From Candidatus Woesearchaeota archaeon (GTDB lineage Archaea; Nanobdellota; Nanobdellia; Woesearchaeales; JABGXB01), in the NCBI GenBank assembly GCA_018675975.1, contig JABGXB010000003.1, forward strand, positions 267,821 through 331,820: a stretch of DNA of 64,000 bases. The letters are read 5' to 3'. Positions 29,274 through 52,064 of the stretch are shown piece after piece. Below the pieces are notes generated by a model. It saw nothing but the letters and a program-made list of their open reading frames with translations. It did no database searches and was not told where the DNA came from. Positions within the stretch are counted from its first letter, which is position 1. Every line of letters begins with the position of its first letter. The position numbers and the translations under genes were made by a program.

Positions 29274-31034
29274 ATGAATTATCAAATGAAGAATTTTTCC
29301 ACTGAGCAAACTGAATTATTAAGATCATTTCTTTTTACAGCTCCACATAGTAATGTAAGTTTAATTTATCCACAACAATTAGTTGCAGGTGAAGAACTAG
29401 CCCCATTAATTTCAGCATATTCAAGAAGCAATCAACCACTTCAAGAAAGAGTATTAGAATTTGTTGATAAACAAAAAAATACAGAAGCTAAAGCACTATT
29501 ACCACATTTACCAGAATTAATGAAAACATTTAGAAATGAAGATGGTTCATTAAAAATTAGTAAAAAAACAAGAAACTTTTCTAAAAAATGGGTTCTTGCG
29601 CACGGTCACAGTTCAATAAAAGAAATGAATTCTATTTTTGGATGTGTTGAAGGAATTTCAGACATTTGTGGAAAATTAATTACTGGACATCCTTTAGCCC
29701 ACCCTCAAGTTAAGTCATCAAGATATATTTCTTTTGAAGATACATTAGATATGGCATTAGTAGATCCAGACATTCAAAACTTATCTTGTTCAAATGAAAT
29801 TATAGAACATTTAAAAGAATTAAATACAGAATATCTTAATGCAACTAAATATTTAGCAAATGCAGTATTTAAATCTGAAGAAACTGATCAAATAAGAGAA
29901 TTTTTAACTCGAGACTCAGTATTAGATATGCATGGTGAAAAATTATTTAATCGTGCTAAAAAAAAAGATCCAGAATTAGTAAAAACTGACACATTAATAG
30001 AAGAATTAAAATCACAGGCTTATGAAAATATAAATAGTGATGAGTATGTAATGGGACAACTTGAAAAATTTGTTCTTGATAGAAGTAGAGTATATTTACC
30101 TGGTTCAACTAGAACAAGTTTAGGTTTTATGATTGATGGTAGAACATGTGAAGAAATCATTACAACATTATTAACTAGTCCTTTAATAGAAGCCCAAAGT
30201 TTTGGTAATCAAATTTGGACTGAAACAAAAAAAATCTCACCTGTTTTATTAGGAGATCAATCCCATATTAAAAAAGATGAATGGAAATATGAGTTAGATA
30301 CGGACTTTAGAAAAGAATTAGCTACACGATTAGATTATATTGTCATGCACTCTGAACAAAAATTTGGAAGAGTTTATTCACCAAGCTTTGTACATTCAAG
30401 AGGAGAAGATACAAGATCTGCAGTTATGGCTGCATATAAATATAGTGATTTTTCTTTTGATGATTTAATAGAACAATTAAAAGAAAAAGATGTTAAATGG
30501 ATTTTAGATAGAACTCACGAACATAGAAATAAATTTGATCAATTACATGAAAGTGGTGGTCATGGTGGTATGCTTACTGAAATGACTATGCCATATCATG
30601 GTTATAGAGATATGTTTAGACATAGAAAAGGAGCAAGATCTAATCAATTATATACAACAGTTCACGGTTTTGAAAATGTTGAAATTTTTAATCATTTTGA
30701 TATAAATTCAAGATATGAATTATTAATGAATAAAAATAATGAATTATTTAGAAAAGCAGCAAAAGAAAATCCCCATGCTGCACAAAAAGTTGTTGCCTTT
30801 GGTCAATTATGTAGAGCAGCACACAGTTGGTCATTAGAACAAATTGGATATATTGCAAGAATAAGAGCGAATATTGAAACCGGAAATATTAGTTATGTAA
30901 AAACTGTTCATCAAATTGTAGATGGTGTAAAAAGATTATCACCACAATTAGCATCAAAAATAAATTATAATCAAGAAATGTTTCCAGAACATATTTGGAA
31001 AGAAGGTTATGATTTATTTAGAAGTAAAAAATAA
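29274..31034 (+). CDS. large hypothetical protein, His-rich C-terminal region (first gene of candidate novel cassette)
   Basis: 586 aa; no family recognised; His-rich stretch HEHRNKFDQLHESGGHGGMLTEMTMPYHGYRDMFRHRKGARS; 33-nt gap to the next gene. Confidence 0.6.
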   Translation: MNYQMKNFSTEQTELLRSFLFTAPHSNVSLIYPQQLVAGEELAPLISAYSRSNQPLQERVLEFVDKQKNTEAKALLPHLPELMKTFRNEDGSLKISKKTRNFSKKWVLAHGHSSIKEMNSIFGCVEGISDICGKLITGHPLAHPQVKSSRYISFEDTLDMALVDPDIQNLSCSNEIIEHLKELNTEYLNATKYLANAVFKSEETDQIREFLTRDSVLDMHGEKLFNRAKKKDPELVKTDTLIEELKSQAYENINSDEYVMGQLEKFVLDRSRVYLPGSTRTSLGFMIDGRTCEEIITTLLTSPLIEAQSFGNQIWTETKKISPVLLGDQSHIKKDEWKYELDTDFRKELATRLDYIVMHSEQKFGRVYSPSFVHSRGEDTRSAVMAAYKYSDFSFDDLIEQLKEKDVKWILDRTHEHRNKFDQLHESGGHGGMLTEMTMPYHGYRDMFRHRKGARSNQLYTTVHGFENVEIFNHFDINSRYELLMNKNNELFRKAAKENPHAAQKVVAFGQLCRAAHSWSLEQIGYIARIRANIETGNISYVKTVHQIVDGVKRLSPQLASKINYNQEMFPEHIWKEGYDLFRSKK

Positions 31035-33604: not shown

Positions 33605-36600
33605 ATGGAACAAAGTATTGAAACAAAACGAACTGGTATAAAAGTTAAAAAAGTTTTTTGTAGTGATAATATAAGCCCATTTGAAACTGTTGAATTTGAA
33701 AACAGATCAAGTGTGATAAAAAATAGAGATGGTTCTATATTATTTGAAATAAATAATATTCATGCTCCAAAAAAATGGTCGCAAGTTGCCGTAGATATAA
33801 TGGCACAAAAATATTTTAGAAAAAGTGGAGTTCCACAATATGATGAAAATCAAAATGAAATTAAAGATGAATTTTCAAATATAATTACAGGTTCAGAAAC
33901 AGATATTACTCAACCAATAAAAAGATTAACTGGATGTTGGAGACATTGGGGAGAAAAATATAATTATTTTGATACGCAACAAGATGCAATTAATTTTGAA
34001 CAAGAAATACAATATATGTTATTACATCAAATCGCTGCACCAAATAGTCCACAATGGTTTAATACGGGACTTAAATGGGCATATAATATTTCTGGAAGTG
34101 CACAAGGACATTATTATGCTGAACATGAAACAGGTGAAATTAAATTATCTGAGGATGCATATTCAAGACCTCAACCGCATGCATGTGCGGATTATTATAC
34201 ACAAGTGTATACTGATAAGGGTACAATGTATATTGGAGATATAGTTGAAAATAATTTAACTAATATAAAAGTATTTGATGGAGAAAAATATGTAAAAGTT
34301 CTTGCAATCAAAAACAATGGAAAAAAAGAAGTGTTTAAAATTCAATTAAAAAATGGAAATTATATTAAATTAACTCAAGATCATTTAGTGCTATCATCAC
34401 AAAAAAGAAAAAAAAATGGTGGAAATTATAACTGGAATTATGTAAAAGATGTAAAATTAGGTCACAAATTACAACAACCATTAATTCTAGATATTAAAGA
34501 AAAAAATGTATTTAGTGATGATTTAGCAAAAGCAAGATTAGCCGGTTGGATAGTTGGAGACGGATCAGTTGGAATTTATGAAAATGTAATGAGATTGGAA
34601 ATTATTTCTATTAAAGAAGAAGAATTTGAATCAATAATAAATGATATTCAAGAAGTATTTGGACAAGAAGTTAATTTTTGGATTAGTAAATTTAAAACAA
34701 AAAACGAAAATTTAGATGGTAAAAGAATTCATTTAGCAGGTAAAAAAATACATAAATTAATTGAAGACTATGATTTACTAAAATCTTCATTTAATGCAGA
34801 AGTACCTCAAAAAATAATTAATGGGTCACCACAAGAAAAAAGAGAATTTTTAAAAGCCTTATTTCAAGCAGATGGTTGTGTCAGAATTAGAAAAGATGAA
34901 AATAGAAATTCAGGAGATGTGTGTTTAACTACAATTTCAGAAAATCTTTCATTTGGAGTTTTACAATTATTAAATTCATTAGGTATTTATTGTAGAATTA
35001 ATAAATATAGTGATAAAAGAGAAAATCGAAAAGATGTTAATCAAGTTATAGTATCTTATGGTAGTGCAAGAGAACAATTTCAAGAACAAATTTCTTTTAT
35101 ATGTTCTCAAAAAACCGAAAAATTAGAATTATTAAATAAAATTATAACAAAATCAAAAACACTTCCATTAATAAGAGAAGAAACAATTATTTCAATTGAA
35201 TCTGAAGGCATTAAAGATGTTTATGATATTCAAACAGAATCTTCAAAATTTCTTGGAAATGGAATTGTAATACATAATTGTTTTATTCAATCAGTTAAAG
35301 ATGATTTAGTTAATCAAGGTGGAATATTTGACCTTTGTACAAGAGAGGCAAGAATATTTAAATATGGTTCTGGAACTGGTTCAAATTTTTCACAATTAAG
35401 AGGTCAGTCTGAAAAATTATCAGGTGGTGGAAGATCTTCAGGTATGATGTCATTTTTAAAAATATTTGATGTGGCAGCTGGAGCAATTAAATCAGGTGGT
35501 ACAACAAGACGTGCAGCAAAAATGGTTTGTCTTGATTTGGATCATCCAGAAATTATTGAATTTATTGATTGGAAAGCAAATGAAGAAAAAAAAGTTGCTA
35601 ATTTAATTACTGGTTCAAAAAATTCAAAATATCATTTACAAAAAATATTAAAAGAAGCAAGTTCAAATTCAAATATAGAAAAAAATCCAAAATTAAAATC
35701 AGCAATTAAAGAAGCTATTGAACAAAATATTTCTTTAAATTATATTGATAGAGTTTTAAAACTTGCAAATCAAGGAATAACTGAATTTGAAACTCCCGAG
35801 TTTGATAATCATTTTGAAGGTGAAGCATATTCTACAGTTAGTGGACAAAATTCAAATAATTCAATAAGAATACCAAATTCATTTTATGAAGCTGTTCATA
35901 AAGACTTAGATTGGAATTTAAAAAATAGAACTGATGGAAAAATTTCAAAAACTGTAAGAGCAAAATGGCTTTATGATAAAATTGGACAAGCTGCTTGGGC
36001 TTGTGCAGATCCTGGTGTTCAATTTGATACGACAATTAATGAATGGCATACATGTCCAAAAGATGGAAGAATTAATGCAAGTAATCCTTGTTCTGAATAT
36101 ATGTTTTTAGATGATACTGCATGTAATTTAGCTAGTATTAATTTAATTCATTTTATTAATGATAGTGGACATTTTAATGAAGAAAAATTTGCTCATGCAT
36201 GTGAACTTATGACAATTGTTTTGGAAATTTCAGTTACTATGGCTCAATTTCCAAGTGATGAAATTGCAAAAAGAAGTTGGGAATATAGAACATTAGGTTT
36301 AGGTTTTGCAAATTTAGGGACATTACTCATGGTTAAAGGAATTTCTTATGATAGTGATGAAGCTAGAAGTATAGCTGGAGGAATTAGTGCCATAATGTGT
36401 GGAACTGCTTATGAAACATCTGCTAAACTCGCAAAACATCTAGGACCTTTTAACAGATATGAACATAATAAAGATGACATGTTAAGAGTTATTAGAAATC
36501 ATAGACGTGCTGCATATAATGTTTCAAATGAAGAGTATGAAAAATTAGAAATTACTCCAGTTGGCATTGATGAAAATTTATGTCCAAATAATATTTTACA

Positions 36601-38146
36601 AAAAGCTAGAAATTCATGGGATAATGCACTTGAACTTGGACAAGAATATGGATTTAGAAATGCACAAGTAACTGTTATTGCACCAACCGGAACTATTGGA
36701 CTTTTAATGGATTGTGATACTACAGGAGTTGAGCCAGACTTTGCAATTGTTAAATATAAAAAACTTGCAGGCGGTGGTTATTTTAAAATTGTAAATCATT
36801 CAGTTATTAAAGCATTGAGAACTTTAGGTTATGAAAAAGATCAAATTATTGATATTAAAAAATATTGTATAGGTCATCAAACATTAGTGGGTTGTCCAAC
36901 CATAAATCATAAAATTTTAAAAGATAAAGGATTTGATGAAGAAAAATTAGAACTTATTGAAAAACAATTAGAAACTGCATTTGATTTGAGTTTTGTTATG
37001 AATAAAAATATTTTAAGTGAAGAATTTTTAAAAAAATTAGGATTTAGTGATGAACAATTAAATTCTGAAATGTTTGATTTACTAGAAGAATTAAAATTTA
37101 CAAAAGAACAAGTTGATATTGCAAATGAATATGTTTTTGGAACAATGACAGTTGAAGATGCTCCATACTTATTAGAAGAACATTATTCAGTTTTTGATTG
37201 TGCAAATAAATGTGGAAAAAAAGGTAATAGATATATTGACACTTATGGACATATTAATATGATGGCAGCAGTTCAACCTTTTATTTCTGGTGCAATTAGT
37301 AAAACAATTAATATGGATTCAGAAGTTAGTGTTAAAGATATTTTAGATGCTTATGAAGCTAGTTGGAAATTAATGCTTAAAGCAAATGCATTATATAGAG
37401 ATGGATGTAAATTAAGTCAACCATTAAATACTGCTGTTTTTGAAAGTGAATACAATTTAAATTTATCTGAAGAAGATATTGATGAAACAGTTGATTCAGC
37501 AGCAATTCAACAACAAATTCAAACAATGAAAGCAAATCAGTTGCCGAGAAAAAGAGGTGGTTTTGTTCAAGAAGCAACTGTTGCAGGTCACAAAATATAT
37601 TTAAGAACTGGTGAATATAATGACGGAAAATTAGGTGAAATTTTTATTGACATGTATAAGGAAGGTGCTGCCTTTAAAGCACTAATAAATTGTTTTGCAG
37701 TTGCAATAAGTAAATCTCTACAATTTGGTGTTCCTTTAGAAGAATTTGTTGAACAGTTTACATTTACTAGATTTGAACCGGCAGGTTTAGTAACTGGACA
37801 TGAATATATTAAAAATTCTACGTCAATATTAGATTATGTATTTCGTGTTCTAGGCTATGAATATTTAGGTAGAGATGATTTAATTCATGTAAAACCTAAA
37901 AGAAAACCACTAGACATTATAGAACATGAAGATGATCCAAGAGATAAACATAAAACACTAGATAGTTTTTCTAATAGAAAAAATGTAGAAGAGACTAGAA
38001 ACGAAATGCTTTTTAAAAAAATTAATACTGCCAAATCAAGAGGATATACTGGAGAAGCATGTGGTTCTTGTGGTAGTATGAGAGTAAAAAGAAATGGAAG
38101 TTGTACACTTTGTGAAGATTGTGGTTCTACTAGTGGTTGCAGTTAG
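33605..38146 (+). CDS. nrdJ: ribonucleotide reductase, class II-like (adenosylcobalamin-dependent NrdJ type), containing one intein
   Basis: 1513-aa precursor; N-terminal [21 protein letters not shown] (class II WSQ..A.DI...KYF motif), active-site [22 protein letters not shown]-terminal Cys-rich zinc-ribbon tail; no nrdB nearby. Confidence 0.85.
34184..35278 (+). mobile_element. intein (365 aa) with LAGLIDADG homing endonuclease domain inserted in nrdJ
   Basis: Starts with Cys (PQPHA|CADYYTQVY), ends IVIHN followed by the +1 Cys (|CFIQSV); two LAGLIDADG blocks [11 protein letters not shown] and [11 protein letters not shown]; extein junction restores a contiguous PHACFIQS. Confidence 0.8.
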
Positions 38147-40023: not shown

Positions 40024-41961
40024 TTAATTGTTATATTTATTAAAAATAAAAATACCAGAACCTAAAATAAATATACTAAAAAAGATAAAAATATACCAAA
40101 TTATATTAACCATTTTACTATTTGTACTATTTTGAATTTCATTTACAATAATATTGCTATTTAATGAATCTTCATTTGAATTGATATTAATATTATTTAA
40201 TTCTAAATTTAAATTTAATAATTTTTTTTCCATTTCATTTCTTTTTGATTCCATTTCTAAATTAATTTTATCAATCTTATTTTTTAATTCATTATTCATA
40301 TTATTAACATCCTTTGAATTATCAACAATATTTGAATTATCATTTAAGCATTTAATTACATTAATTGAAATTGATTTTTTCAATAATTCATTATTATTTT
40401 TATTAAATGCTTGTAAAATAATATCACGTTCCCCTAATTTATTATTAATATTATAATTAAAACTAAAAGATTGATCATCTCCTTCATCTAAACTAAATTC
40501 TTTATTTAATTCAATATCATCATCAGTTAATTGTAAAGTTAAGTCTTCAATATCTCTACTACCAACATTTACTAAATCTCCATTTATTTTTATACCATTA
40601 AATGAACATAAATCTATTTCTTTTGTATAAAATAAATTATCAATAATTAATTCTTCTCTATCTTTTTTTATTTTTACTCTGATAGTAAAATTTGCTTCAT
40701 GAAAATAACTCTCATTATCCAATACACTAGCATATAAATTGAAATTTGATCTTTCTTCTTTATTATCAAATGGTATTATTGATTCATCAAAATCAATATC
40801 AATAGTTTCACAATCATTTTTTACAATATCTAATTCTTCTTCATCAATATCAATTCTAAACATTTCACCATATAATCTTATATTTTCTAAATCTGTATTT
40901 TTTACATTACAAATTTTAACTTCAGCTGATATTTGATCCCCTACTTTAAAATCATCATCATAGGCTCTACCTGAATTATCAAAACGTTCTTTTTTATCAT
41001 TTCTATGTAATTTTACAAATTCAAATTCAAGTGGATTTTTAGGATTTACATTAATTTTTCCATCAATTGTAATTACTTCATTTAAAACATTTGTTAATTC
41101 TAATTGAAAACTATTTTCACCATAATTTAATTGAGGATTAAAAATAATATCATTAACTTCCAGTCCATTAAATTTCCATTTATAATTTACAATAAAATTA
41201 CTATTTGTTAAATCTAAAAATTGTTCATATAAGTTAAATGAACTTAAATCCTCTTCATTTAAATTAATAGTAATATTATTATTTAATGATAAAAAATCAC
41301 TATGTGTTTTATTTGTTACAATAGTATATATTTTCCCATTAGGAATATTATTACTATCATTTTTTTGAAATAAAACATGCAAATAAAGATTCTTATTTTG
41401 ATAATTAATTAAATCACCATCATTTAAAATAATTGTAAGTTTTTTATCACCGCCTTGATAAAAAGGATAAACATTCCAATCATCTTTATTTAAACCAAAT
41501 TTTTCATAAGTAAAATCATCATTTGAATTTAAAATTAAAGCATTCCATAAAAAATTCATTCCACTATTAATATATCTACTAATCAATTCTGAATATATTA
41601 TTTCATTTGAATCATTAGGTCTATCAATTACATTTATAGTTTCTTGTTTAATTTTATATTGACCTAAACTATTTTTTAAAATAAATGTAATATTATGAAT
41701 TCCACTATTATGATATACATGATTTATATTATTTAAATTATAATGTTTTAATTCATTTGTACCAAAATCAACTATTGAATAATCTAAATTAAAACCGCTT
41801 TGAGTTAAAGTATTTAATGTAAAATTAAAAGGCTCATTTACATAAATAGTTGTAGGTAATTCCACAGTATAATCCATACCATTTTCAAATACACCATTTA
41901 CAGAAATTAAACTAATTGATATAAAAAATATTAAAACTAATAATTTATTTATTATTTTCAT
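40024..41961 (-). CDS. large secreted surface (glyco)protein, C-terminal coiled coil + TM anchor; paralog of the upstream gene
   Basis: 645 aa; signal peptide, many N-x-S/T sequons, region homologous to 41973..44039 (DNSGRAYDDDFKVGDQISAEVKICN... vs RNSGERYSKDIKPGQDFSVEIKVCN...), C-terminal TM IIWYIFIFFSIFILGSGIFIF. Confidence 0.6.
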   Translation of the reverse strand: MKIINKLLVLIFFISISLISVNGVFENGMDYTVELPTTIYVNEPFNFTLNTLTQSGFNLDYSIVDFGTNELKHYNLNNINHVYHNSGIHNITFILKNSLGQYKIKQETINVIDRPNDSNEIIYSELISRYINSGMNFLWNALILNSNDDFTYEKFGLNKDDWNVYPFYQGGDKKLTIILNDGDLINYQNKNLYLHVLFQKNDSNNIPNGKIYTIVTNKTHSDFLSLNNNITINLNEEDLSSFNLYEQFLDLTNSNFIVNYKWKFNGLEVNDIIFNPQLNYGENSFQLELTNVLNEVITIDGKINVNPKNPLEFEFVKLHRNDKKERFDNSGRAYDDDFKVGDQISAEVKICNVKNTDLENIRLYGEMFRIDIDEEELDIVKNDCETIDIDFDESIIPFDNKEERSNFNLYASVLDNESYFHEANFTIRVKIKKDREELIIDNLFYTKEIDLCSFNGIKINGDLVNVGSRDIEDLTLQLTDDDIELNKEFSLDEGDDQSFSFNYNINNKLGERDIILQAFNKNNNELLKKSISINVIKCLNDNSNIVDNSKDVNNMNNELKNKIDKINLEMESKRNEMEKKLLNLNLELNNININSNEDSLNSNIIVNEIQNSTNSKMVNIIWYIFIFFSIFILGSGIFIFNKYNN

Positions 41962-41972
41962 TGTACCTCAAT

Positions 41973-44039
41973 TTAAATATAAACTAATAAAATAAGTCCA
42001 AATATTAACATCAATACAACACCAATTGCTATAATTAATAATATTGTTTGTTTTTTTTGTTCTGATTTATTTAAATTATCTTGTAAATCATTATCTAAAT
42101 TTATGTTTTGATTTTCTAATAATAATTTTTTATATTCACTAATAAAATCATCATTATTATTTTCAACACCATTTAATTCATTTAATAATTTTAAATTCTT
42201 TTCATATAAATCTTGATCAGTTTGAATATTATTTGAACAATCATTTAATGAAATATCTAATTCTTTATAGTCAACTATATAATTATCCCTATATACTTCT
42301 GCAAAAAATTTATACTGTCCAATGGATGCAGAATTTGGAAAATTAAAATTTGTGAAAGCACTAAATTCATTATCATTTTTATAATCAATATCGAAATCTT
42401 TTATTGATTCAAAATTGAATTGCTCTGAATAAAATCTAACATGCCCATTTTCATCATTATCACCAATATTAAATATTAATGCAGATAATGAAATTGCTTT
42501 ATTATCAAAACAATTTTGTACTACAGTTGGAGTTACTAAAAATTTTTTGAATAATAAATCATGATTTTTTCTATCTACTTTTAATTTAACTGTAAAATTA
42601 TCTTCTTGAAAATAATCTAAATCATCTCTACCTTCAATATTAATAAACATATTAAATGTTTTATCTTCAGCATCATAAGGAATGTGATCTTTATCAAATT
42701 TAACTGAACGTACTTCACACTCATCTTCTGATAATGTAAAATCTGATTTCTCATCATCATCTAAATCACTACCATCATCAATATCTTTTATTATAGCACT
42801 AATTGCAATATCTTCAATATTAATATCTGAATTACTATCATAATCATTACATACTTTAATTTCTACACTAAAATCTTGACCTGGCTTAATATCTTTTGAA
42901 TATCTTTCTCCACTATTTCTAATTCTATCTGATTTGTCATTAACAATTACTTTTACTCTATCAATTCTTAACATTTTTCTTTGAATCGGTTTAATATCTG
43001 CTTCAATCACTTTACCATTAAAAGATAATTTAATTTCACCCAATAAATCAATATCTATTGGACGACTTGAACTTGCATGAATATTAAATGTTTTATTTTC
43101 TAATTCATTTAATGCAAAATTAGTTTCAAAATTACTATATTCAATAAATGAATCAAAAGAACTAATATCTAAACCAATATTTTCTAAATTTGATTCACCA
43201 GTATTTTTAACAGTGAAATTAAAATCAAATTCAGATTCTAATCCACTAATATTAATTTGAATTTCATTAGGTATAATTGTTAATTCCTGTATTTTTTCTC
43301 TTACTTCAATATTTGAAATTTGATAATTTTTATTAAAATTAAATTCTGACTGATCTACATTTAAATCGTATTTATACAAACCGCTAACTAAATCATTACT
43401 AATAAAAACTTCAAAACTTAAATTTTTCACTTCAGATTTATTTAATAAAATTATTTTCTTTTCAACATCTAAAGGAAAAAAACTTGATGTTTTTAATAAA
43501 TTATTAAAATTAATTTCAACTTGAGTATCATAATTTGATTGACTAATAAATTCAAATTCAATAGTATTTGTTTTACCCTTTACTATTTTTTTTGTTATTG
43601 CCTTTACATCAAATTGTGTATTTCTAGAAATATCTAAACTAATTGGCAATAATGTTTGTTCAGATTTACTATCTGTTGCAATTATTGTCCCATTATATTT
43701 ACCATAAGTAGGATTATTTGATAAATCAATAAAAAAATCAACTGATTTTTGTCCATTAGCATCAAAATTTCCTAATTGTGCATTTACACCATTTAATTCA
43801 ATAGCTAAAAATTCACCATTAGCATTTGATAAAACAAGTCCACTAAGTGCAATATTTACATTTGTTGAATCTAAATTTGTAATTTTAAACTGACTATTAA
43901 CTTTAGATGTTCTAAGTCCATTACTTAAATCACTTAATTCTATACTTTCTTTGTCAAAATTAGGTACTGCATTACTAAATGCTGAAACTAATGTTGCAAA
44001 TATAATCAAAAATGCAAATAAATGCGTTAATTTTTTCAT
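41973..44039 (-). CDS. large secreted surface (glyco)protein, C-terminal TM anchor; paralog of the downstream gene
   Basis: 688 aa; signal peptide MKKLTHLFAFLIIFATLVSAFS, sequon-rich, homologous C-terminal domain, C-terminal TM ILLIIAIGVVLMLIFGLILLVYI. Confidence 0.6.
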   Translation of the reverse strand: MKKLTHLFAFLIIFATLVSAFSNAVPNFDKESIELSDLSNGLRTSKVNSQFKITNLDSTNVNIALSGLVLSNANGEFLAIELNGVNAQLGNFDANGQKSVDFFIDLSNNPTYGKYNGTIIATDSKSEQTLLPISLDISRNTQFDVKAITKKIVKGKTNTIEFEFISQSNYDTQVEINFNNLLKTSSFFPLDVEKKIILLNKSEVKNLSFEVFISNDLVSGLYKYDLNVDQSEFNFNKNYQISNIEVREKIQELTIIPNEIQINISGLESEFDFNFTVKNTGESNLENIGLDISSFDSFIEYSNFETNFALNELENKTFNIHASSSRPIDIDLLGEIKLSFNGKVIEADIKPIQRKMLRIDRVKVIVNDKSDRIRNSGERYSKDIKPGQDFSVEIKVCNDYDSNSDINIEDIAISAIIKDIDDGSDLDDDEKSDFTLSEDECEVRSVKFDKDHIPYDAEDKTFNMFINIEGRDDLDYFQEDNFTVKLKVDRKNHDLLFKKFLVTPTVVQNCFDNKAISLSALIFNIGDNDENGHVRFYSEQFNFESIKDFDIDYKNDNEFSAFTNFNFPNSASIGQYKFFAEVYRDNYIVDYKELDISLNDCSNNIQTDQDLYEKNLKLLNELNGVENNNDDFISEYKKLLLENQNINLDNDLQDNLNKSEQKKQTILLIIAIGVVLMLIFGLILLVYI

Positions 44040-47051: not shown

Positions 47052-47651
47052 ATGACATATATTGATAATATGATAAGAATTACAAATGAAATCACATTAG
47101 AATTTGAAAAAAATATAATCAAAAAAAAAATCAATTATAATAATATTAATACTGAAAAATTATTAATTTTGTCAAATGAAATGATTCATGATTCAAGTAT
47201 ATATCAAAAAAATATAATTTTAAAATTTTCTACACTAATATATTGTATTGCAAAAATGATTAAAGAACAAAAAAATAAAAAATCAAATAATTTAGAAACC
47301 ATATTTTGTAAATATTATAATAATTTAAAATTAATGTACACTTATTTAAAAAAAAATAATATCAATAAATTTGAAAATAAAATAGTTGAAATTTTTAATT
47401 TAATTTTAAAAAATAATAATAAATTTAATATTTATATTCAAGACATAATTAATTCAACGACAATAAAAAAAGGCTCTAAATTAGTTGATCATGGAATAAG
47501 TATTGAAACAGTTAGTAAAATGACTGGTTTAAATCAATGGGAATTATATAATTATTTAGGTAAAACTAATTTTGAAATAGTATTAGATGAAAAAATACAA
47601 AAAACTCAAAAAAGGCTAGATCATGCTAAAAAAATATTTAATATAAAATGA
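47052..47651 (+). CDS. hypothetical protein with C-terminal HTH
   Basis: 199 aa; C-terminal GISIETVSKMTGLNQWELYNYLGKT helix-turn-helix; stop overlaps the next start by 4 nt. Confidence 0.4.
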   Translation: MTYIDNMIRITNEITLEFEKNIIKKKINYNNINTEKLLILSNEMIHDSSIYQKNIILKFSTLIYCIAKMIKEQKNKKSNNLETIFCKYYNNLKLMYTYLKKNNINKFENKIVEIFNLILKNNNKFNIYIQDIINSTTIKKGSKLVDHGISIETVSKMTGLNQWELYNYLGKTNFEIVLDEKIQKTQKRLDHAKKIFNIK

Positions 47652-48346
47652 AACAATTAATATTTGATGCAGGTATAATTATTAATTTATCATTAAATAA
47701 TTTACTTTGGATTTTACCAAAATTAAAAAAACAATTTAATGGAGAATTTATTATACCAAATGCAGTTGAATATGAAATAATAACAAAACCATTACAAATA
47801 AAAAGATTTAAATTAGAGGCAATACAAGTTTTTAATCAAGTACAAAATAAAACTTTAACTATTTCAAATGATAAAAATATAAAACAAATTTATGATCAAA
47901 TAGATCAATTAGCAAATACATCTTTTTCTTGTAATGGACAAATAATTAAAATTATACATAGTGGTGAAATTAGTGTTATTGCCCATGCAATTAATCAAAA
48001 TGCTACTGCAGCAATTGATGAAAGAGCTATGAGAGAATTATTAGAAAATCCAAATGGTTTCTTAAAACATCTTAAAAAAAAATTAAAAAGAAATATACAA
48101 ATGGATAAAGAAAAAATTAAAAAATTAAAATCTTTAACTAAAAATATACAAATAATAAGAAGCAGTGAAATTGTTACAATTGCATATGATTTAGGATTAT
48201 TTAATTTTTATATTGAAAAAGGAATTGAAAAAATATTAAAACAACCAAAAAAACAATTATTAGACTCTTTATTATGGGGAACTAAATTAAGAGGATGTAG
48301 TATAACTGATAAAGAAATAGAATATATTGAAAAAAAAGAAGTATAA
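47648..48346 (+). CDS. PIN-domain-like protein (putative nuclease)
   Basis: 232 aa; N-terminal LIFDAGIIINL (first acidic residue), IIPNAVEYEI and SGEISVIAHAINQNATAAIDERAM resemble the PIN catalytic motifs. Confidence 0.3.
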   Translation: MKQLIFDAGIIINLSLNNLLWILPKLKKQFNGEFIIPNAVEYEIITKPLQIKRFKLEAIQVFNQVQNKTLTISNDKNIKQIYDQIDQLANTSFSCNGQIIKIIHSGEISVIAHAINQNATAAIDERAMRELLENPNGFLKHLKKKLKRNIQMDKEKIKKLKSLTKNIQIIRSSEIVTIAYDLGLFNFYIEKGIEKILKQPKKQLLDSLLWGTKLRGCSITDKEIEYIEKKEV

Positions 48347-48347
48347 A

Positions 48348-49298
48348 TTAAATATCAGGTCTATCGAATTTCTTAGTTTTTGGTTTTTTTTCATTAAATT
48401 GAAATCTCTCAATTATATTTTCACCATCATTAGTATTCTTCATAACACCCCAGCCCGGAAATTTATTATCTTGATTGGCAGTATACATTTCTTTAATTTT
48501 AGGAATACCAAAACTCGGTGAATCCCCTTCAGCATTATCATATATATTTTTTAATTTATTTGCACTATACATAAAACTATTTTCTTGGCTTGAATTGTAA
48601 AAACCTTTTTTTAAATCTATTGAACCCGAAGATTCATATTCAGATTTTGAAACAAAATTATTAACTAAATTTTTATCTATTCCAGAATCAGTTAATTTTT
48701 TTATAATATCACTACGTAAATGTATATCCTCACCCACTTCATTAACTTGAACAACTTCATCAATATTAGGTTTAAAACCATCCATATCAATTTTAATTAG
48801 TTTAATAGGAGCATCTACTTCAATATTTTTTTGTTTAATTTCCTCATGTTCTATACTTTCTTCTTTTAAAATTTCAATACTATCTATATTTTTATTTTTT
48901 TCAAAATTTTTATTTTTATTTTCAACTATTTCATTATCCTTATATTTTTTTTTGAAAATAAACCTTTTTGCCTTTTCAATTAAATTAAATTTTTTATTAT
49001 AATCAATATAATTAGATTTATGTTCATTTTCACTTTGAGTTTTAAAATCAAACTCATAGTTAGGTTGATTTTGATTATTTGAATTAGAATTACTTGAAAA
49101 TATATTTAATAAATCCATTAAATTACCTATTTTTAATAATTTTTTAGGTTTATTTTCTTTAATATTGGAATTTTCATTTACTAAATCATCATTAAATTCA
49201 TTTTTACTATTTTTAATTAATTTTTTACTTTCTTTTACATTTTTTGTATTATTTTTTAATACTTTTTTTGATTTTTTTTTAATTAACATTTTTTCCAA
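48348..49298 (-). CDS. hypothetical low-complexity K/N-rich protein
   Basis: 316 aa ORF, strongly biased composition. Confidence 0.35.
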   Translation of the reverse strand: MEKMLIKKKSKKVLKNNTKNVKESKKLIKNSKNEFNDDLVNENSNIKENKPKKLLKIGNLMDLLNIFSSNSNSNNQNQPNYEFDFKTQSENEHKSNYIDYNKKFNLIEKAKRFIFKKKYKDNEIVENKNKNFEKNKNIDSIEILKEESIEHEEIKQKNIEVDAPIKLIKIDMDGFKPNIDEVVQVNEVGEDIHLRSDIIKKLTDSGIDKNLVNNFVSKSEYESSGSIDLKKGFYNSSQENSFMYSANKLKNIYDNAEGDSPSFGIPKIKEMYTANQDNKFPGWGVMKNTNDGENIIERFQFNEKKPKTKKFDRPDI

Positions 49299-49346: not shown

Positions 49347-52064
49347 ATGAAAAATCTAATTTTATTAATATTGACAGGCCAAAAAAACATAATTAAAGTA
49401 GTGATAATACTAGCATTTTTGATGAGTATAGTGATTTTTTTAAATTACAGTCCATCATTAACAGGAAATTTAGTATATGACTCTAAAGCTTTGTTTAATG
49501 AATTTTTAGATGTTGAAATTTTAATTGGAGATAAAATAAATAAATTAACAGATCATATTGAAATAATTTTTGATGATGATATAGTGTTTAAAGGCAGTGT
49601 TCAAAATTTATTTGATGTTAAAGTAATTGTTGGAAGTAATAATTTATCAAGTTTTGAAGAAATAAAAGATTATACATTTAAAAATAATTTAAAAGGAAAT
49701 ATTTTAATTAAACCAGACTTAATAATTACATTAAATATCACAGGAAACAAAACTACAGCTCTTGATCAAAACAATTTAACTCTAACAAACATTACTTATT
49801 TTTTAAATTATAATGGAAGTCAATTAAATTTAGAGGAAAATGAATTTCAAATCATTGAAAATTATAAAAATCTTAATTCAAATTTAACTATTAATGAATA
49901 TTTAAATCAAACGAATAATACATTAAACGAACAAATATTAAATATAGTAAATCAAAATGAATTTAGTTTATCTAATCAAAGTAATTCTTTTAATATTATA
50001 GTACCAGCATCAATTATACAACAAAAATATAATAATATAATAAATATAAGTGAAAATAGTAATTTAAACAATTTAGTAAATGTAAGTATTGATGAATATG
50101 ATTGGAATATAACAAAATTATCGCATACAATTGAATCTAATAATGATAATATTATTTTAGGTAACTTAAAAATACAAGAAATTTATTTTGATTCAGTAAA
50201 TCCATCAATTGTATTTAATAATAATACAATCAATATAAATGAAAATAAAATTAGTGCAGAGTTTATACTAACTTTAGATGACGTTCAATTAAAATTTGCA
50301 AATTTAAAAAATATTGAAAATACAGTGAATTATTCTAATGATATAATAAGTAATTTATTAGAAAACAATTTGAACTGGTATGAAATTAGTCAAATTAATG
50401 GTGAATTTATTTCAGAGGATACAAATTTAGATTATGAAGTTCAAAAAATAAATGATTTTGATTATATAATTAATGGAACTAAAGACACATTATTTTTTGA
50501 TTTTTCAAATTTAAGTATTAATACAAGAGAATTTGACTATAAAAGTAATTCAGACACATTAGGTAAAAAGAATTTCACATTAAAAGTTACTATTGATAAA
50601 AATACTAAACAATATGATTATACAATTGACTTAGCCACATCATGTCAAGAAAATTGGGTTTGCAAACCAGGAACTTGTTTAGCTGACAATACACAAAAGA
50701 ATAATTGTATTGACGAGAATGGATGCGGTACACAATTTTTAAAACCAGTTGAAACCAAAGCCTGTGTTTATAGTTGTACTCAAAATTGGAATTGTACTGA
50801 ATTTAGTCAATGTAATGAATTAAATTTTCAATTTAGAGTTTGTACTGATAAAAATAATTGTCAAAAATATAATAATACTGCAACTAAACTAATTGAAAAA
50901 GAAAAATTAAGTGAAATTCAAAGTTGTAAAGATAATTGTAATGAAGACTGGAGATGTACATCTTGGTCTTCCTGTTCTAAAGATCAAATATATAGAAGTT
51001 GTACTGATAAAAATACATGTGGAAGTGAAATATTAAAACCCAAAGTCGAAGCAAGTTGTAATGAAATAGTCGATGATCAATATTTAAAAATTTATGAAAA
51101 ATTCTTAGAATCTGAAAATTATGTTAATTTATTAAATCCAAAAAAAAATGAAAAAACAGCAAAAAATACATTGATTGAAAAAAAAGAAGAAAAAAAAGAA
51201 ACGAAAACAGAAAATAGATTAGTTGGTTTTTCAATAAAAGAAGAAGATAATTCAACATCTAGCGGAAAAATTATTATTTTTGTATTAATTGCAATGGGAG
51301 TATTATCATTTACATTTAATGAAAGGGGAAATATAAAACAATTTGTTGGTGAAAGTAATAAAAAAGAATATTTTAAAAATTATTTGAATATTAAAAAACA
51401 AAAAGTTTTACAATTATTTAATAGAAATAATGATGAAAATAATCAAAACAATCAAGAGAATAATCAATTTAATAATTTAAGTTATAATTATTCAAACAAT
51501 ATACAAAGTTCTAATATGGATAATAATGTTAATAATAATGATACAAATAACAATTCAGACAATCAAAATAATTTTAATCAAAATATAAAAATTAATAATT
51601 ATAATCCGAATAATCAATCTCAACAATTAAATTCATACTTAAATTATTATCAAAAATTAGGATATAATGATTATCAAATTAAAAGTTTTTTAATGCAAAA
51701 AGGATACAATTTAAGTCAAATAAATGGTTCATTTAATAGTCAATTAGGTCAAAATAATAATGAGAATAATAATATAAAAAAAGAATTTCATTTTGCAACA
51801 GCCGAGAGTAATAAAAAAACTCATCAAATTACAGTTAATAAAAATATATTTAATAATGCATTAGGGCTATTAAAAAATGATTTTGGAATTGCAAAAGCAC
51901 CAACATCTTTAGTTGCAAAAAGAAATTTTTCATTTACTATATCTCTTATTGAAAAAAATGTAGATGAAAATACTATAATTGAAATATTAAAAAAAAAAGA
52001 CATTAGTGAATCAAATGCATTAGAATTAATTGATAGAGCTAAAGAAAAATTAAATAAATTCTAA
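49347..52064 (+). CDS. large membrane-anchored surface protein: sequon-rich ectodomain, three Cys-rich repeats, TM helix, N/Q-rich tail
   Basis: 905 aa; N-terminal TM/signal anchor; three repeats of about 45 aa of the pattern C..NW.C......C......R.C.D.N.CG....KP.....C; TM IIIFVLIAMGVLSFTF; then a prion-like N/Q-rich region. Confidence 0.6.
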   Translation: MKNLILLILTGQKNIIKVVIILAFLMSIVIFLNYSPSLTGNLVYDSKALFNEFLDVEILIGDKINKLTDHIEIIFDDDIVFKGSVQNLFDVKVIVGSNNLSSFEEIKDYTFKNNLKGNILIKPDLIITLNITGNKTTALDQNNLTLTNITYFLNYNGSQLNLEENEFQIIENYKNLNSNLTINEYLNQTNNTLNEQILNIVNQNEFSLSNQSNSFNIIVPASIIQQKYNNIINISENSNLNNLVNVSIDEYDWNITKLSHTIESNNDNIILGNLKIQEIYFDSVNPSIVFNNNTININENKISAEFILTLDDVQLKFANLKNIENTVNYSNDIISNLLENNLNWYEISQINGEFISEDTNLDYEVQKINDFDYIINGTKDTLFFDFSNLSINTREFDYKSNSDTLGKKNFTLKVTIDKNTKQYDYTIDLATSCQENWVCKPGTCLADNTQKNNCIDENGCGTQFLKPVETKACVYSCTQNWNCTEFSQCNELNFQFRVCTDKNNCQKYNNTATKLIEKEKLSEIQSCKDNCNEDWRCTSWSSCSKDQIYRSCTDKNTCGSEILKPKVEASCNEIVDDQYLKIYEKFLESENYVNLLNPKKNEKTAKNTLIEKKEEKKETKTENRLVGFSIKEEDNSTSSGKIIIFVLIAMGVLSFTFNERGNIKQFVGESNKKEYFKNYLNIKKQKVLQLFNRNNDENNQNNQENNQFNNLSYNYSNNIQSSNMDNNVNNNDTNNNSDNQNNFNQNIKINNYNPNNQSQQLNSYLNYYQKLGYNDYQIKSFLMQKGYNLSQINGSFNSQLGQNNNENNNIKKEFHFATAESNKKTHQITVNKNIFNNALGLLKNDFGIAKAPTSLVAKRNFSFTISLIEKNVDENTIIEILKKKDISESNALELIDRAKEKLNKF

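Follow-up and report, generated by a model that had tools for sequence, protein, structure and literature searches.

What is a membrane protein that carries three cysteine-rich modules and an Asn- and Gln-rich (N/Q-rich) tail, and is any part of it found elsewhere? The question is raised by a gene for a 905-amino-acid (aa) protein in a stretch of 64,000 nucleotides (the window) on contig JABGXB010000003.1 of a Candidatus Woesearchaeota archaeon. The initial annotation of this gene did not recognize the module and described the tail as prion-like. Considered alone, the gene, from a DPANN metagenome-assembled genome (MAG), encodes a hypothetical surface protein of an ordinary kind. The new result is that its Cys module can be assigned to a very large unnamed family, with a confident structural model, an inferred disulfide, and a predicted fold resembling the thrombospondin type-1 repeat (TSR). 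As judged from profile comparisons, the three modules are diverged copies of a very widespread, usually tandem extracellular repeat that lies outside the curated domain libraries.

All 18 Cys residues of the protein fall within aa 433-571, where they form three groups of six with spacings of 6-5-10-6-13, 6-6-10-6-22, and 6-6-9-6-13 (modules 1, 2, and 3), and the modules follow one another head-to-tail with gaps of 2 aa. The tandem triplication proposed initially is clearly detected by alignment statistics: pairwise module alignments score z = 5.2, 9.1, and 9.8 against composition-preserving shuffles, none of 2000 shuffles reaches the observed score, and a hidden Markov model (HMM) built only from modules of other proteins matches the window protein with 91 bits (scores of the three domains in table 1). 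The six Cys are present in all three modules, as are Trp6 and Asp25, two invariant positions of the family. Trp11, Arg21, and Pro36, which are nearly invariant in the family, are all retained in module 3, whereas module 2 has Phe11, Arg21, and Leu for Pro, and module 1 lacks both Trp11 and Arg21. The consensus put forward in the initial annotation thus fits module 3 best and describes the other two less well, module 2 also having its insert and no G/KP.

An exhaustive HMMER search of 1.84 billion cluster representatives with the whole protein as query recovered a single full-length ortholog (P0001; 907 aa, 35% identity), and two scans of metagenome contigs found no more. The ortholog repeats the deviations of the window modules position by position, indicating that the triplication is older than the split of the two lineages; in its module 2, Trp6 is replaced by Phe. 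No second module-bearing ORF (open reading frame) was found in the window, a 14.9-bit partial match antisense to the ribonucleotide reductase gene being taken as chance.

Beyond the ortholog, the same search defined a family of 882 representatives at E ≤ 1e-3 (163 at E ≤ 1e-10) from DPANN archaea and Patescibacteria, in proteins of 211-2800 aa, nearly all of which match via aa 430-575. Module statistics were drawn from the 150 best matches of the 882. An HMM run on these gave 653 module matches, 598 of them full-length, with a median of four and a maximum of 13 per protein; the copies usually stand three to five head-to-tail with a median gap of 2 aa, and their consensus, 41-42 aa long, is CxExWxCxxWSxCxxGxQTRxCxDxNxCGTxxxKPxxxQxC. 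An N-terminal hydrophobic segment is present in 119 of 149 module-bearing proteins, and where a transmembrane (TM) segment follows the modules, as in 43 matches, the median distance from the end of the modules to this segment is 37 aa.

None of this is visible in curated libraries, as neither Pfam nor NCBIfam matched the module regions of ten homologs. The module is not unique, being part of a very large uncurated family. Word-indexed homolog searches with the Cys region and with an alignment of 72 modules matched nothing, and a profile of the window protein and its ortholog matched only its own cluster. A chimeric probe combining window and P0008 modules, for which exact peptide patterns were required, reached only 4 loci. 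Viral contigs gave no match with peptide patterns, and the module appears to be essentially absent from catalogued viruses; among 2.9 million viral contigs, a degenerate DNA pattern of the module core matched once, at the very end of a 4.3-kb contig (L009 4265-4323, minus strand, IMGVR_UViG_3300035698_026311). We found no description of this module when searching the literature for thrombospondin or Cys-rich repeats in DPANN, the candidate phyla radiation (CPR), or Woesearchaeota. A Candidatus Iainarchaeum MAG encodes, beside aEF-1alpha and RtcB, a 493-aa protein (L005 2437-3918, plus strand) that has three canonical modules and an N-terminus resembling a lipobox (LLFGC), and is thus an instance of the module in a probable archaeal lipoprotein.

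The size of the family allows the Cys pairing to be approached. Of the 598 full-length modules, 559 keep all six Cys and only two have lost a single one; in the remaining 37, exactly Cys2 and Cys4 are missing. That these two are lost as a pair while the other four stay points to a disulfide between them and speaks against metal binding, and from this pattern we infer that the six Cys form three disulfides, of which Cys2-Cys4 is one. The variant without this pair, a two-disulfide form of the repeat, is carried by P0003 (...NWQTGSW...QTRTVTD...), among others.

Each module is predicted to adopt a small, elongated, three-stranded fold, with TSRs as the nearest solved relatives. AlphaFold2 with the 72-module alignment modeled module 3 as a small beta structure (strands 6-8, 18-20, 23-25, and 39-41) at a mean predicted local distance difference test score (pLDDT) of 95.3, and in the model of the full-length protein the Cys region reaches 85-95. 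At the sequence level, even a threshold of E ≤ 10 gave no match to Pfam TSP_1 (PF00090), whether for the protein, for its modules, or for 72 modules of the family, and a PDB search with the module profile returned no TSR. An hhalign comparison of the module profile with seven TSR sequences from PDB entries gave a probability of 5.5% (P = 0.007), with only W-S-x-C...G-x-Q-x-R-x-C aligned to the TSR core. We consequently use "TSR-like" for the predicted fold of the module and do not assign the module to the TSR family, a link in sequence not being established.

The topology evidence places the modules outside the cell, where disulfides can form. Hydrophobic segments occur at aa ~13-35 and ~639-660, and the charges that precede the first and follow the second (table 1) suggest that the N-terminus is inside, the ectodomain outside, and the tail inside. 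The protein has 30 N-glycosylation sequons, 18 of which lie in aa 36-430 against 9.9 expected from composition (p = 0.003), and the ectodomain of the ortholog has 32 against 10.3 expected, a number reached by none of 2000 shuffles. By contrast, sequons are not enriched in the tails (8 against 6.2 expected in the window protein, 3 against 2.7 in the ortholog). This enrichment of the ectodomain only, in both orthologs, independently supports the outside placement; nine sequons stand at identical alignment columns. Together with the N-terminal segments of the homologs, charges and sequons agree with the sequon-decorated ectodomain, the extracellular Cys modules, and the single TM helix after them that were originally proposed, the last being evident in both hydropathy and model. 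No AglB-like WWDYG motif was found in the window. An archaeosortase substrate (PGF-CTERM and similar) was considered and rejected, as there is no PGF motif, 245 aa follow the TM helix, and GFSI lies 12 aa upstream of it; a classical archaeal S-layer glycoprotein was likewise rejected, since no S-layer model matches the window protein.

The domain order is thus a signal peptide or anchor, an orphan head of ~395 aa, three modules, a helical segment with a charged linker, a TM helix, and a cytoplasmic tail (table 1). The full-length model has a mean pLDDT of 55, and in the head a beta segment at aa 360-430 is the only part not modeled below 50. The head has no family match, no significant internal repeats, and a homolog only in P0001. 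The K/E/T-rich linker after module 3 is ~37 aa longer in the ortholog. In Pfam-A and NCBIfam, neither the full protein nor its single modules, head, linker, or tail domains matched any model significantly; PDB sequence searches with the full protein, the module profile, and both tail domains returned nothing meaningful, and Foldseek with the full-length model returned only noise. Two short motifs are kept in both orthologs, S-[LI]-T-G-x-[LVS]-[VI] right after the N-terminal hydrophobic segment (aa 36-44) and [VT]-G-F-S-I before the TM helix (aa 626-630). A few other proteins with modules (P0014, P0084, and P0085) have motifs like xITGxVV after their signal segment, and a loose xTGxxV motif at this place showed no clear enrichment among the homologs.

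Table 1. Coordinates of the surface-protein gene and its predicted parts, as positions of the window
Feature	Residues (aa)	Position	Strand	Remarks
Whole gene	905 + stop	49347..52064	+	ATG start
N-terminal signal peptide or signal anchor	1-35	49347..49451	+	K-rich n-region; hydrophobic 18-32, then SPSLTG; model helix 13-33; charge +3/0 before core
Extracellular head	36-430	49452..50636	+	N-rich, predicted mostly beta; 18 N-x-S/T; one homolog only
Module 1	432-473	50640..50765	+	Degenerate 6-Cys repeat without second Trp and Arg; 26.7 bits; pLDDT 85-93
Module 2	476-527	50772..50927	+	6-Cys repeat, Phe for Trp2, 10-aa insert Cys5-Cys6; 31.4 bits
Module 3	530-571	50934..51059	+	Near-canonical 6-Cys repeat (CNEDWRCTSWSSC...YRSCTDKNTCGSEILKP...C); 45.0 bits
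Helical segment and membrane-proximal linker	572-638	51060..51260	+	Conserved short helical segment (YL..Y.KF..S..Y), then disordered K/E/T-rich linker ending in GFSI
Single TM helix	639-660	51261..51326	+	Hydropathy, model
Basic juxtamembrane segment	661-689	51327..51413	+	NKK.YF..Y...KK, conserved; charge +8/-3; marks cytoplasmic side
N/Q-rich disordered linker ("prion-like" stretch)	690-760	51414..51626	+	45 N+Q/80 aa; pLDDT 22-25
Cytoplasmic helical domain 1	761-805	51627..51761	+	Two G-[YFH]-x-x-x-Q-I half-repeats; pLDDT 83-86; conserved in ortholog
Second disordered linker	806-853	51762..51905	+	N/K-rich, not conserved
C-terminal three-helix domain	854-905	51906..52061	+	KRNF.FT...I.KNV.E..II..L.K...E.ALE.ID.AKE.L; pLDDT 97-98

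The cytoplasmic tail had been described as some 250 aa of N/Q-rich low-complexity sequence. It does contain a real N/Q outlier, as 45 of its best 80 residues (aa ~692-771; 56%) are Asn or Gln, against 31% for the next ORF in the window and a median of 16%. However, the low-complexity sequence really amounts to ~70 aa and a second linker of ~50 aa flanking two predicted folded helical domains, so that the tail of 245 aa is not uniformly low-complexity. In the model, disorder at aa 693-755 (pLDDT 22-25) and aa 801-853 alternates with a helical domain at aa 755-805 (83-86) and a three-helix domain at aa 854-901 (97-98). The ortholog conserves the juxtamembrane stretch and both helical domains, the C-terminal one being the best conserved part of the tail (domain E = 1.4e-9). 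The two domains are not similar to each other, and neither has a significant match in Pfam or among PDB sequences. As a lead only, helical domain 1 has a non-significant match (2n5j, E = 0.61) to the N-terminal domain of ZC3H12A, which we take to be ubiquitin-associated (UBA)-like.

At the DNA level, 30 of 33 Asn codons in the N/Q-rich stretch are AAT, and imperfect short tandem repeats of period 3, 9, 12, and 21 run through it. The ortholog, on a contig of 29% GC, has largely a gap at this place and at most 19 N+Q per 80 residues in its tail. The N/Q richness is best explained by slippage of AAT repeats in a genome of ~22% GC and not by a selected prion function, and the stretch behaves as a drifting, non-conserved spacer. 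A functional prion-like or condensate-forming domain, which would cluster the receptor or allow heritable switching, is in our view very unlikely, even though the segment is the strongest of its kind in the window, has Tyr and Phe interspersed, and combines predicted disorder with an N/Q count above 30 in 80 residues, the classical threshold said to go back to Michelitsch and Weissman in 2000. Its lack of conservation in the ortholog, its almost exclusive encoding by AAT within imperfect repeats, and its spacer-like position between conserved folded elements all weigh against such a function, and "prion-like tail" therefore overstates what is a disordered, slippage-type linker. Some archaeal candidate prion domains do form amyloid in assays, and candidate Q/N-rich prion domains have been reported for ~0.1% of the proteins of archaea, with a density that peaks in two Nanoarchaeota (DPANN) genomes (Zajkowski et al., bioRxiv 10.1101/2020.07.20.212902).

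We consider it probable that the window gene encodes a lineage-specific, N-glycosylated, bitopic cell-surface protein that serves as an adhesin or as part of the envelope and has a TSR-like stalk stapled by disulfides. The three stapled modules would form a rigid rod beside the membrane that holds the glycosylated, fast-evolving head away from it, and the rod itself may have ligand-binding ability, like the TSRs of eukaryotic and apicomplexan adhesins. Such a protein would have a part in the attachment of an ultrasmall, probably host-dependent cell by its surface, or in the architecture of its envelope. In the tail, disordered Asn-rich spacers connect the two conserved helical domains, at which cytoplasmic partners probably dock. 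The rod model agrees with the arrangement in those members of the family whose modules separate S-layer or beta-helix-like domains from a membrane anchor.

Three other functions deserve comparison with this surface-stalk proposal. Were the protein mainly a structural, S-layer-like component of the envelope, its modules would be only a tether; P0007 and P0010, which join a Methanosarcina-type S-layer domain (PF07752/TIGR01567) to C-terminal modules and a TM anchor, are consistent with this, as are the membrane-proximal position of the modules in the 43 matches with a downstream TM segment and the heavy sequon decoration of the head. We nevertheless judge it unlikely, because the window protein has no S-layer domain, its structured cytoplasmic tail of 245 aa is atypical of S-layer proteins, and a tiny family evolving faster than its neighboring genes would be unusual for a main lattice protein. 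Less likely again is a transmembrane signaling receptor that relays ligand binding by the head through the two helical domains: conservation of these domains and of the juxtamembrane segment amid drifting linkers speaks for it, but there is a single TM helix only, no signaling domain recognizable in Pfam or NCBIfam, and no conserved signaling gene nearby. Cytoplasmic metal-binding modules of a zinc-ribbon-like kind, suggested by the high Cys density and by isolated weak zinc-finger model matches of single modules (E = 0.05-0.4), can be almost entirely discounted, since the topology evidence and the extracellular partner domains place the modules outside, no His is conserved, the pairwise loss of Cys2 and Cys4 fits a disulfide, and the fold matches are disulfide-rich TSRs. 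With the present data the structural, signaling, and adhesion roles are inseparable, and prion function and metal binding are unlikely.

That the gene encodes a real membrane protein, as first proposed, is borne out by its intact ORF, its two hydrophobic segments, and its recurrence. The protein is identical on 9 public contigs, including three NCBI MAGs (in which the DNA is also identical) and one contig of 1.03 Mb; another gene call starts at a TTG at codon 9 (49371) and gives 897 aa (P0151). Its NCBI entries (MBT3408723.1 and others) carry the label hypothetical protein and the organism name Candidatus Woesearchaeota archaeon, Candidatus Woesearchaeota being a phylum within the kingdom Nanobdellati (DPANN), and we found no mention of the MAG accessions in the papers searched. 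The window has a GC content of ~22% and a predicted proteome with 9% Asn. It also encodes GatD/GatE, CDC48, an intein-bearing class II ribonucleotide reductase, and a protein with the three pyrimidine/AMP-phosphorylase-type domains, and these genes fit an archaeal origin.

The ortholog is syntenic: the same two genes, one for a protein of 199/202 aa and one for a DUF3368 protein, lie upstream of it with identities of 50-55%; compared with 35% for the surface protein itself, this indicates that the latter evolves faster. In the window, the 199-aa protein overlaps the DUF3368 protein, of 232 aa, directly upstream of the surface-protein gene (47052-48346, plus strand), and the pair occupies the same position in the orthologous locus (L004 658-1972). 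DUF3368 is presumably PIN-like, and to us the pair looks toxin-antitoxin-like. A divergently oriented ORF of 316 aa (48348-49298, minus strand), K/N/E-rich and without a Pfam match, has no detectable similarity to the 175-aa ORF at the matching position of the orthologous locus and may be a fast-evolving or spurious gene.

Some other genes of the window were noted as well. A 1513-aa class II (B12-dependent) ribonucleotide reductase (33605-38146, plus strand) is split by an intein that carries a LAGLIDADG homing-endonuclease domain. A 586-aa ORF (29274-31034, plus strand) has a ThyX (Thy1) domain at aa 96-324 only and is unusually long for a flavin-dependent thymidylate synthase. Two adjacent ORFs of 645 and 688 aa (40024-41961 and 41973-44039, both minus strand) have no Pfam match and moderately N/Q-rich stretches (31% and 28% in 80 aa), which makes them possible additional orphans of this lineage.

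It is believed that DPANN archaea and Patescibacteria need contact with other cells, and most of their surface proteins are unannotated. A family of at least 882 sequence clusters offers a handle for annotating "hypothetical" surface proteins and for choosing candidates for host attachment, and its fold is now predicted with confidence, one disulfide is inferred, and known adhesion modules provide a plausible analogy. The tail carries a separate lesson, that where a genome is very AT-rich, even a striking Q/N-rich tract does not have to be conserved and functional.

Several known systems resemble parts of this protein. With archaeal candidate prion domains (Zajkowski et al., bioRxiv 10.1101/2020.07.20.212902) it shares a disordered, Q/N-rich composition in an archaeal protein, but the window segment is a non-conserved linker within the tail of a membrane protein. 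The large extracellular Cys-rich proteins described from Peribacteria of the CPR are, like the module-bearing proteins, signal-peptide-bearing, Cys-rich, unannotated surface proteins proposed for attachment; the likeness is one of description, as no motif is given and only weak similarity to Myxococcus Cys-rich repeats is reported (Anantharaman et al. 2016, PMC4736985). Closer in architecture are Methanosarcina-type S-layer proteins (PF07752/DUF1608, TIGR01567), in that P0007 and P0010 place the same modules between S-layer domains and a C-terminal TM anchor. The window protein follows their order of head, modules, linker, and TM helix, but it lacks the S-layer domain and has a long structured cytoplasmic tail.

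The comparison with TSRs (TSP_1; as in thrombospondin-1, properdin, complement C6-C9, semaphorin-5A, and the apicomplexan TRAP, CSP, and MIC2) concerns the predicted fold. The module differs from them in being shorter (41-42 aa), in its Trp spacing (W-x-C-x-x-W in place of WxxWxxW), in an extra Cys before the first Trp, and in lacking CSxTCG, instead of which it shows W-x-C-x-x-W-S-x-C and a single Q-x-R. Group-1 TSRs pair their cysteines C1-C5, C2-C6, and C3-C4, a pattern from which the inferred Cys2-Cys4 pair departs. The distribution also differs, the module being found in DPANN archaea and Patescibacteria and TSRs in eukaryotes, and the TSR adhesion fold is usually considered in a eukaryotic context, that of animals and apicomplexan parasites. 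That the module is a true prokaryotic homolog of the TSR, mediating attachment in DPANN and Patescibacteria, is a doubtful proposition; if it were true, the TSR adhesion fold would be a common surface building block of ultrasmall, host-dependent prokaryotes, which would bear on the origin of the TSR.

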